From Escherichia coli (GTDB taxonomy: Bacteria > Pseudomonadota > Gammaproteobacteria > Enterobacterales > Enterobacteriaceae), in NCBI RefSeq assembly GCF_003334385.1, contig NZ_QOWN01000006.1: a DNA stretch of 64,000 nucleotides, one strand, 5' to 3'. The notes below the pieces were generated by a model. The model searched no databases, was not told the origin of the DNA, and saw only the letters and a program-made list of their open reading frames with translations. Numbering within the stretch: the stretch's first letter is position 1; the number at the start of each line of letters is the position of its first letter. Both the position numbers and the translations under genes were made by a program. Of this stretch, positions 28,665-28,682 are shown piece by piece.

Positions 28665-28682
28665 CATTACAAAATTGTAATG
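28665..28682. promoter_or_regulatory. Candidate HprR/CusR-type box in the hprR-hiuH divergent promoter
   Basis: Perfect 18-bp palindrome cattacaaaattgtaatg about 70 bp upstream of hiuH. Confidence 0.45.

Follow-up and report, generated by a model that had tools for sequence, protein, structure and literature searches.

A short inverted repeat lies between the divergently oriented genes hprR and hiuH of Escherichia coli, which raises the question of which regulator, or regulators, it serves and how it relates to the promoters on either side. The repeat was analyzed in a window of 64,000 nucleotides (the whole stretch of DNA under analysis, from contig NZ_QOWN01000006.1 of RefSeq assembly GCF_003334385.1), in which the gene order is hchA, hprS (- strand), hprR (-), hiuH (+), msrP, msrQ, and zinT. 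HprR (YedW; 27948..28619, -), which binds the box described below, is an OmpR-family response regulator of the heavy-metal (CopR/CusR/SilR) subfamily, as assigned by NCBIfam with 483 bits to the equivalog NF008567 (cut-off 353) and 382 bits to TIGR01387 (cut-off 279); its true start, MKILLIED, is at 28619, and a 260-aa ORF represents a mere upstream extension. HprR is phosphorylated by the sensor kinase HprS (YedV; 26590..27948, -), which was assigned from ORFs and annotation. On the plus strand, hiuH (yedX; 28752..29165; 297 bits to NF011610, cut-off 217) is the first gene of the regulated operon and is co-transcribed with msrP (29274-30278) and msrQ (30279-30914), together spanning 29274..30914 (+), as determined by RT-PCR (bioRxiv 10.1101/2021.09.09.459708). 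The layout is thus hprRS (-), a 132-bp spacer that contains the box, and hiuH-msrPQ (+), and the coordinates of hprR and hiuH agree with the RefSeq annotation of matching E. coli genomes.

Among 5,426 complete E. coli genomes, 5,417 contain the hprR-hiuH region, annotated as hprR and hiuH. Over 501 bp surrounding the box, the window matches strain 720632 with 100% identity and K-12 W3110 with 98% identity, and the 132-bp spacer is identical to that of K-12 along its whole length. Approximately 10 of the 5,426 genomes lack the region or carry its hiuH part only (e.g., H12 and H52), and 7 of approximately 5,430 matches to the region are on records labelled as plasmid, with a few genomes carrying two copies.

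The repeat itself, on the E. coli chromosome, is the 18-mer CATTACAAAATTGTAATG (equivalently cattacaaaattgtaatg) at exactly 28665-28682; 70 bp separate its end from the ATG of hiuH, and 46 bp separate its start from the ATG of hprR. Its arms, CATTACAA (28665-28672) and TTGTAATG (28675-28682), enclose the spacer AA (28673-28674), so that the box reads as the inverted repeat CATTACAA-AA-TTGTAATG with no strand assigned to it. The first-pass annotation had located the repeat at these positions, approximately 70 bp upstream of hiuH, which proved exact, and had assigned it a ATTACAAnnTTGTAAT-type architecture, which fits the 8-nt arms and 2-nt spacer. Its description as a perfect 18-bp palindrome has to be corrected, since the central AA is not self-complementary (an A-A pair) and only 8 of 9 pairs are complementary. 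The consensus AT(G/T)ACAA-NN-TTGT(C/A)AT is fitted exactly at 28666-28681. With the CusR/HprR-type consensus ATKACAANNTTGTMAT, the box is the only match within 2 mismatches in the window, and its own pattern has no other match within 3 mismatches there. The YedW/HprR box of K-12 does not differ in any base from this 18-mer and lies in the corresponding spacer, from 87 to 70 bp before the ATG of hiuH; the window represents another E. coli strain. The K-12 box reportedly goes back to Urano et al. (in 2015 and 2017) and is said to have been used by El Hajj et al. and Vergnes et al.

The identical 18-mer has been printed as the HprR/CusR box (PMC9302797), and the range given for the YedW box in bioRxiv 10.1101/2021.09.09.459708 corresponds exactly to 28665-28682 of the window; both papers credit Urano et al. 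2015. Phosphorylated HprR was shown to bind the hiuH promoter by ChIP(-qPCR) and EMSA, and hiuH expression is lower in an hprR deletion (PMC13064566). Expression of an msrP-lacZ fusion is induced approximately 60-fold by HOCl, which is lost in an hprRS deletion, and approximately 4-fold by copper, which is lost in a cusRS deletion and persists in an hprRS deletion (PMC9302797). Furthermore, hprRS itself has been reported to be up-regulated (positive autoregulation). The repeat had been proposed beforehand as the HprR operator for hiuH-msrPQ and as a possible site of CusR cross-talk. The former proposal agrees with the identical published box, with gSELEX, ChIP, and EMSA results, and with the dependence of HOCl induction on hprRS; the latter is supported by the sharing of the box with CusR in the literature and by the requirement of cusRS for the copper induction of msrP-lacZ. 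The checks suggested along with these proposals (EMSA or footprinting, and reporter fusions) have largely been performed already by others. The box is, therefore, an already known and experimentally characterized operator, and its regulation is of an ordinary, textbook-level kind.

We are highly confident that the paralogous regulators HprR (YedW) and CusR share the 18-mer as their operator, at the center of the divergent hprRS and hiuH-msrPQ promoters. As others have shown, HOCl or H2O2 is sensed by HprS, resulting in phosphorylation of HprR; phosphorylated HprR then binds the region and turns on hiuH-msrPQ as well as hprRS itself, and phosphorylated CusR, formed under copper stress, recognizes the same sequence with a different affinity, giving a weaker, CusSR-dependent induction. 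Alternatively, the site could serve HprR alone or CusR alone, with the effect of the other being indirect, for instance because of kinase cross-phosphorylation or because one system induces the other. This would accommodate a ChIP-chip analysis under copper that detected CusR only at the cus locus (cusC/cusR; bioRxiv 10.1101/2020.08.17.251918), and since CusR and HprR each induce the operon of the other, indirect routes exist. However, a single regulator is improbable in view of the copper induction of msrP-lacZ, which survives the loss of hprRS and not that of cusRS, and of the HOCl induction, which does not survive the loss of hprRS; moreover, Urano 2017, as cited in PMC8249747 and PMC9302797, describes one sequence that both HprR and CusR recognize in vitro, with different affinities. 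Given the ChIP-chip result, CusR occupancy at the hiuH box would be weaker or condition-dependent.

A putative FNR site, TTGAAGATAATCAA, has also been described, between positions -148 and -162 relative to the hiuH ATG. Its reverse complement, ttgattatcttcaa, is found at 28590-28603 of the window, inside the hprR coding region, and its deletion was without effect on anaerobic induction (PMC9805139); we therefore rejected it as a part of the box element.

The cusR/cusC spacer of K-12 contains ATGACAATTTTGTCAT (equivalently AAAATGACAATTTTGTCATTTT), which is 1 base per arm off the hiuH box and likewise fits the consensus pattern. This CusR box, in the spacer between cusRS and cusCFBA, was reportedly described by Yamamoto and Ishihama in 2005, and it shares with the hprR/hiuH box the AT(G/T)ACAA-NN-TTGT(C/A)AT architecture, the position in a divergent regulator/target spacer, and a similar distance to the target ATG (72 nt to cusC compared to 70 nt from the core to hiuH). 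It is bound by both CusR and HprR (PMC8249747), and gSELEX peaks of HprR in the same study were strong at cusRS/cusCFBA and weaker at hprRS/hiuH, indicating a higher affinity of HprR for the cus site than for its own spacer. The two boxes differ in their arms and spacer (ATGACAA with TT at cus, ATTACAA with AA at hprR/hiuH), and 68 nt separate the cus box from cusR, a gene with a normal Shine-Dalgarno leader, compared to 46 nt between the hiuH box and hprR, for which a leaderless mRNA is predicted.

Outside E. coli, the exact pattern CATTACAANNTTGTAATG was scanned for in one genome per species, which yielded at least 120 loci, and these were compared with the proteins of the window by tblastn. 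Among the at least 120 matches listed, there are 16 proteobacterial loci in which 44-132 nt separate the box from the downstream start codon of a regulator that is 33-96% identical to HprR, with a copA-type multicopper oxidase (TIGR01480) or hiuH as the opposite gene. From the density of such genes, we estimate that fewer than 0.1 regulator-linked loci of this kind would be expected by chance. The association of the box with the regulator gene is thus kept beyond the species: Escherichia albertii has an ortholog with the complete hprRS / hiuH-msrPQ layout, and Halomonas has a regulator (50% identical), the box, and a HiuH homolog (54% identical; TIGR02962 142 bits, cut-off 87). In several Gammaproteobacteria, the box faces a copA-type multicopper oxidase (TIGR01480 947 and 824 bits). 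At these copR-copA loci, the CopR/PcoR copper boxes correspond to the exact 18-mer with the same spacing to the -10 element, and the regulator is 42-57% identical to HprR; the signal and target differ, with copper and copA on the one hand, and HOCl/H2O2 and hiuH-msrPQ on the other. Because it is found beside regulator genes in 16 proteobacterial loci, the box is, by this comparison, the general operator of the CopR/CusR/HprR subfamily and not peculiar to E. coli.

In 3 Verrucomicrobia metagenome-assembled genomes (L003, L057, and L063), the exact box was found 100-313 bp past the end of an HprS-like kinase gene, and the regulator at these loci is 49-51% identical to HprR. One of them (L003) has two copies of the box that are 245 bp apart (10624-10641 and 10869-10886).

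These results also bear on whether the box could be a chance AT-rich inverted repeat devoid of function. Perfect 8+2+8 inverted repeats of any sequence number 3 in the window compared to 1.08 +/- 0.9 in shuffled sequences, so that a repeat of this form is as such unremarkable and occurs at approximately the chance rate, about one per window. In addition, little can be learned from conservation within E. coli, where the entire spacer is 98-100% identical. The exact sequence of the box, with its 16 specified bases, is a different matter, as it is expected 7.7e-6 times per window and equals the published operator. Furthermore, the box recurs beside homologous regulator genes in distant Proteobacteria at a fixed promoter spacing, and the reported binding and genetics refute a chance origin in practice, leaving it a negligible probability. 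Between E. coli and E. albertii, 19 of the 132 spacer columns differ and none of these is in the box, with substitutions crowding both flanks, a footprint of marginal significance (P = 0.049). The two other perfect 8+2+8 inverted repeats in the window, CAGTCATAGTTATGACTG (15434-15451) and GGCAGACGCGCGTCTGCC (53433-53450), correspond in number to what chance provides.

When the regulator-linked loci were aligned with the regulator gene on the left, using the flanks of box matches without a nearby regulator as controls, two features outside the 18-mer emerged. One is an outer half-site, which on the target side (GT(C/A)A, with its start 11 bp downstream from that of the inner GTAA) is present in 11 of 16 loci, compared to 5 of 152 control flanks, and on the regulator side (as the mirrored ATGAC) in 7 of 16 loci, compared to 5 of 152; the other is a -10-like hexamer nAnnnT 31-32 nt past the end of the box, present in 14 of 16 loci, compared to 41 of 152. 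The corresponding Fisher tests (3e-10, 1e-5, and 3e-6, respectively) overstate independence, because the loci were selected for the exact box and some are close relatives (L024/L069; the window/L005). In the window, the putative outer (third) half-site is GTAAG (28688..28692, +), a direct repeat 11 bp downstream of the right-arm GTAAT on the hiuH side, and the hprR side is without a counterpart. E. albertii and the hiuH promoter of Halomonas likewise have GTAAGG, and K-12 cusC has GTCAC in the same register together with a -10-like hexamer (TAAAGT) at the same spacing, 32 nt past the box. The copR-copA loci usually have outer half-sites on both sides (ATGAC ... GTCAT, four half-sites in total), whereas hprR/hiuH has the hiuH-side one only.

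On the basis of this cross-species spacing, the -10 element of the hiuH-msrPQ promoter is predicted to be TATCCT (28715..28720, +), which would place the hiuH transcription start at approximately 28727, the center of the box near -53.5, and the outer half-site at approximately -37. It should be noted that a search of the literature for start sites returned an indirect value for hprR only, so the hiuH start is a prediction. A scan of 28450-28900 for consensus sigma-70 promoters gave no match in the spacer, which is uninformative, because the activator-dependent promoters considered here have poor -35 and -10 hexamers.

Toward hprR, a candidate -10 element of the hprRS promoter, CATATT (28626..28631, -), occupies the mirrored position at a distance of 33 nt from the box. 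In a table of reporter fusions with transcription starts taken from the dRNA-seq of Thomason 2015, the hprR fusion is listed as '+1 +669' relative to the start codon (PMC9262595 Table 1); all other regulators in this table have a 5' UTR of 13-150 nt, and the paper does not comment on hprR. In agreement with this, CATATT would place the hprR transcription start at 28619, the A of its ATG, with the center of the box near -54.5 and the mRNA being leaderless, and no Shine-Dalgarno sequence was found upstream of the hprR ATG. The CATATT hexamer is 7 nt upstream of this start, and the mRNA from which hprR is translated appears to be leaderless (28617-28631, -). In two other loci of the scan (L028 and L111), the start codon of the regulator is likewise just 44-46 nt away from the box. 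With the box at approximately -54.5 for hprR and -53.5 for hiuH, the arrangement would be bidirectional and nearly symmetric, which fits autoregulation of hprRS. A sigma-70-like promoter in the hprR direction, TTGTAA (28672->28667)-16-TATAAC (28650->28645), overlaps the box. It is less likely to be the regulated hprR promoter, because it predicts repression by occupancy of the box, yet hprRS is reported to be up-regulated, and because the dRNA-seq-based start is the ATG; it may represent a basal hprR promoter.

It is hardly credible that the repeat functions as a hairpin or cruciform in nucleic acid (as a terminator or RNA element) instead of as a protein operator. Folding of the strand into a stem of 7 bp with a loop of 4 nt is possible (-4.2 kcal/mol, z = -2.5). 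However, this stem is weak and nearly all A-T, in place of the G+C-rich stem with a T-run in a transcribed region that characterizes an intrinsic terminator or structured RNA; no T-run follows it, and the terminator scan made no call here. The start of hprR and the one predicted for hiuH are both downstream of the box, which is therefore probably not transcribed.

Within the reading as a shared HprR/CusR operator, the alignment suggests that the palindrome may be the inner half-site pair of a larger operator, which in copR-copA type loci would take the full form ATGAC-N5-CATTACAA-NN-TTGTAATG-N5-GTCAT. On the hiuH side, the inner GTAAT and outer GTAAG would form an 11-bp-phased direct repeat. 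Such repeats are the usual target of a head-to-tail dimer of OmpR/PhoB-type regulators. The outer site would adjoin the -35 position of the promoter with the -10 element TATCCT, and a single bound regulator complex could drive both divergent promoters, because the box is at approximately -53.5 for hiuH and -54.5 for hprR. With regard to the direct-repeat operators of PhoB and OmpR, GTAAT-N6-GTAAG abutting the -35 region resembles a pho box in its phasing; however, the dominant conserved feature at the hiuH box is the inverted repeat. We tentatively propose, with somewhat less than even confidence, that an ancient composite operator exceeds the published 18-mer, consisting of the inner repeat and 11-bp-phased outer half-sites at approximately -54 of two promoters, that it has been kept from proteobacterial copR-copA loci to the cus and hpr loci of E. 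coli, and that its hprR/hiuH version, from which the outer half-site on the regulator side was lost, drives transcription of hprR as a leaderless mRNA. If true, this asymmetry could explain the weaker binding of HprR to its own spacer as well as any unequal activation of the two promoters. Parts of this composite-operator reading may already be present in published footprints. A sequence search of the PDB returned no complex of HprR, CusR, or CopR with DNA; the hits were limited to generic structures of the OmpR family and the DNA-binding domain of PcoR.

A further likeness concerns the Firmicutes. OmpR-family regulators of the GraR/BceR type use inverted repeats, which is unusual for the family, and their operators (ACAAATTTGT; AAGTGACA-N4-TGTCATTT) contain almost the same inverted repeat as the CusR box (PMC3128592). 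Among the at least 120 matches listed in our scan, the exact 18-mer was found in 18 loci of Firmicutes/Mollicutes (L006, L017 at 10009-10026, L019, L021, L042, L048, L056, L060, L064, L067, L070, L071, L073, L086, L106, L107, L113, and L118). In 17 of these, the box comes directly after an operon of a response regulator (approximately 220 aa) and a small histidine kinase (approximately 337 aa), the box of L071 being upstream of it, and in 15 loci, an ABC ATPase (approximately 255 aa) and usually an FtsX-type permease (approximately 680 aa) are encoded downstream of the box. With a BceS-like small kinase in the operon and an ABC ATPase and permease downstream, these loci therefore represent BceRS/BceAB-like modules. 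Their boxes have a second GTAA 10 bp after the inner one, and the distance to the -10 element is greater than at hiuH (41 nt in L019, the sole locus counted by hand). The GraR/BceR regulators are approximately 28-34% identical to HprR, and their targets are ABC transporters for peptide antibiotics. No such gene set was found at the window, which encodes HprR and HprS (452 aa, with a periplasmic sensor) instead, with no ABC transporter nearby. The likeness of the hprR/hiuH box to GraR/BceR operators is, thus, resemblance and not membership. Judged by their operators, two distant OmpR-family clades (approximately 30% identical) use nearly the same inverted repeat; if the composite operator proposed above is real, the near-identity with BceR/GraR boxes would point to a head-to-head mode of DNA binding shared by both clades.

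As a shared operator, the box represents a node at which oxidative and chlorine stress (via HprSR) and copper stress (via CusSR) converge on MsrPQ, the periplasmic repair system for methionine sulfoxide, and on HiuH. The functions of MsrPQ and HiuH have been linked to survival in neutrophil-rich and copper-rich host niches and, for EHEC, to persistence in the gut (PMC13064566). Our modest addition to the published picture is one of comparative anatomy, comprising the outer half-site, the constant distance of 32 nt between the box and the -10 element, the symmetry at approximately -54, and the leaderless hprR; it leads to testable predictions about how one palindrome may drive two promoters and how two paralogous regulators may share it.

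Upstream of zinT, whose start is at 31171, a further inverted repeat, TGTTATATGTTACAATATAACA (31112-31133), with 8-nt arms and a spacer of 6 nt, ends 38 bp before that start; we take it to resemble the Zur operator of the zinc-regulated zinT.
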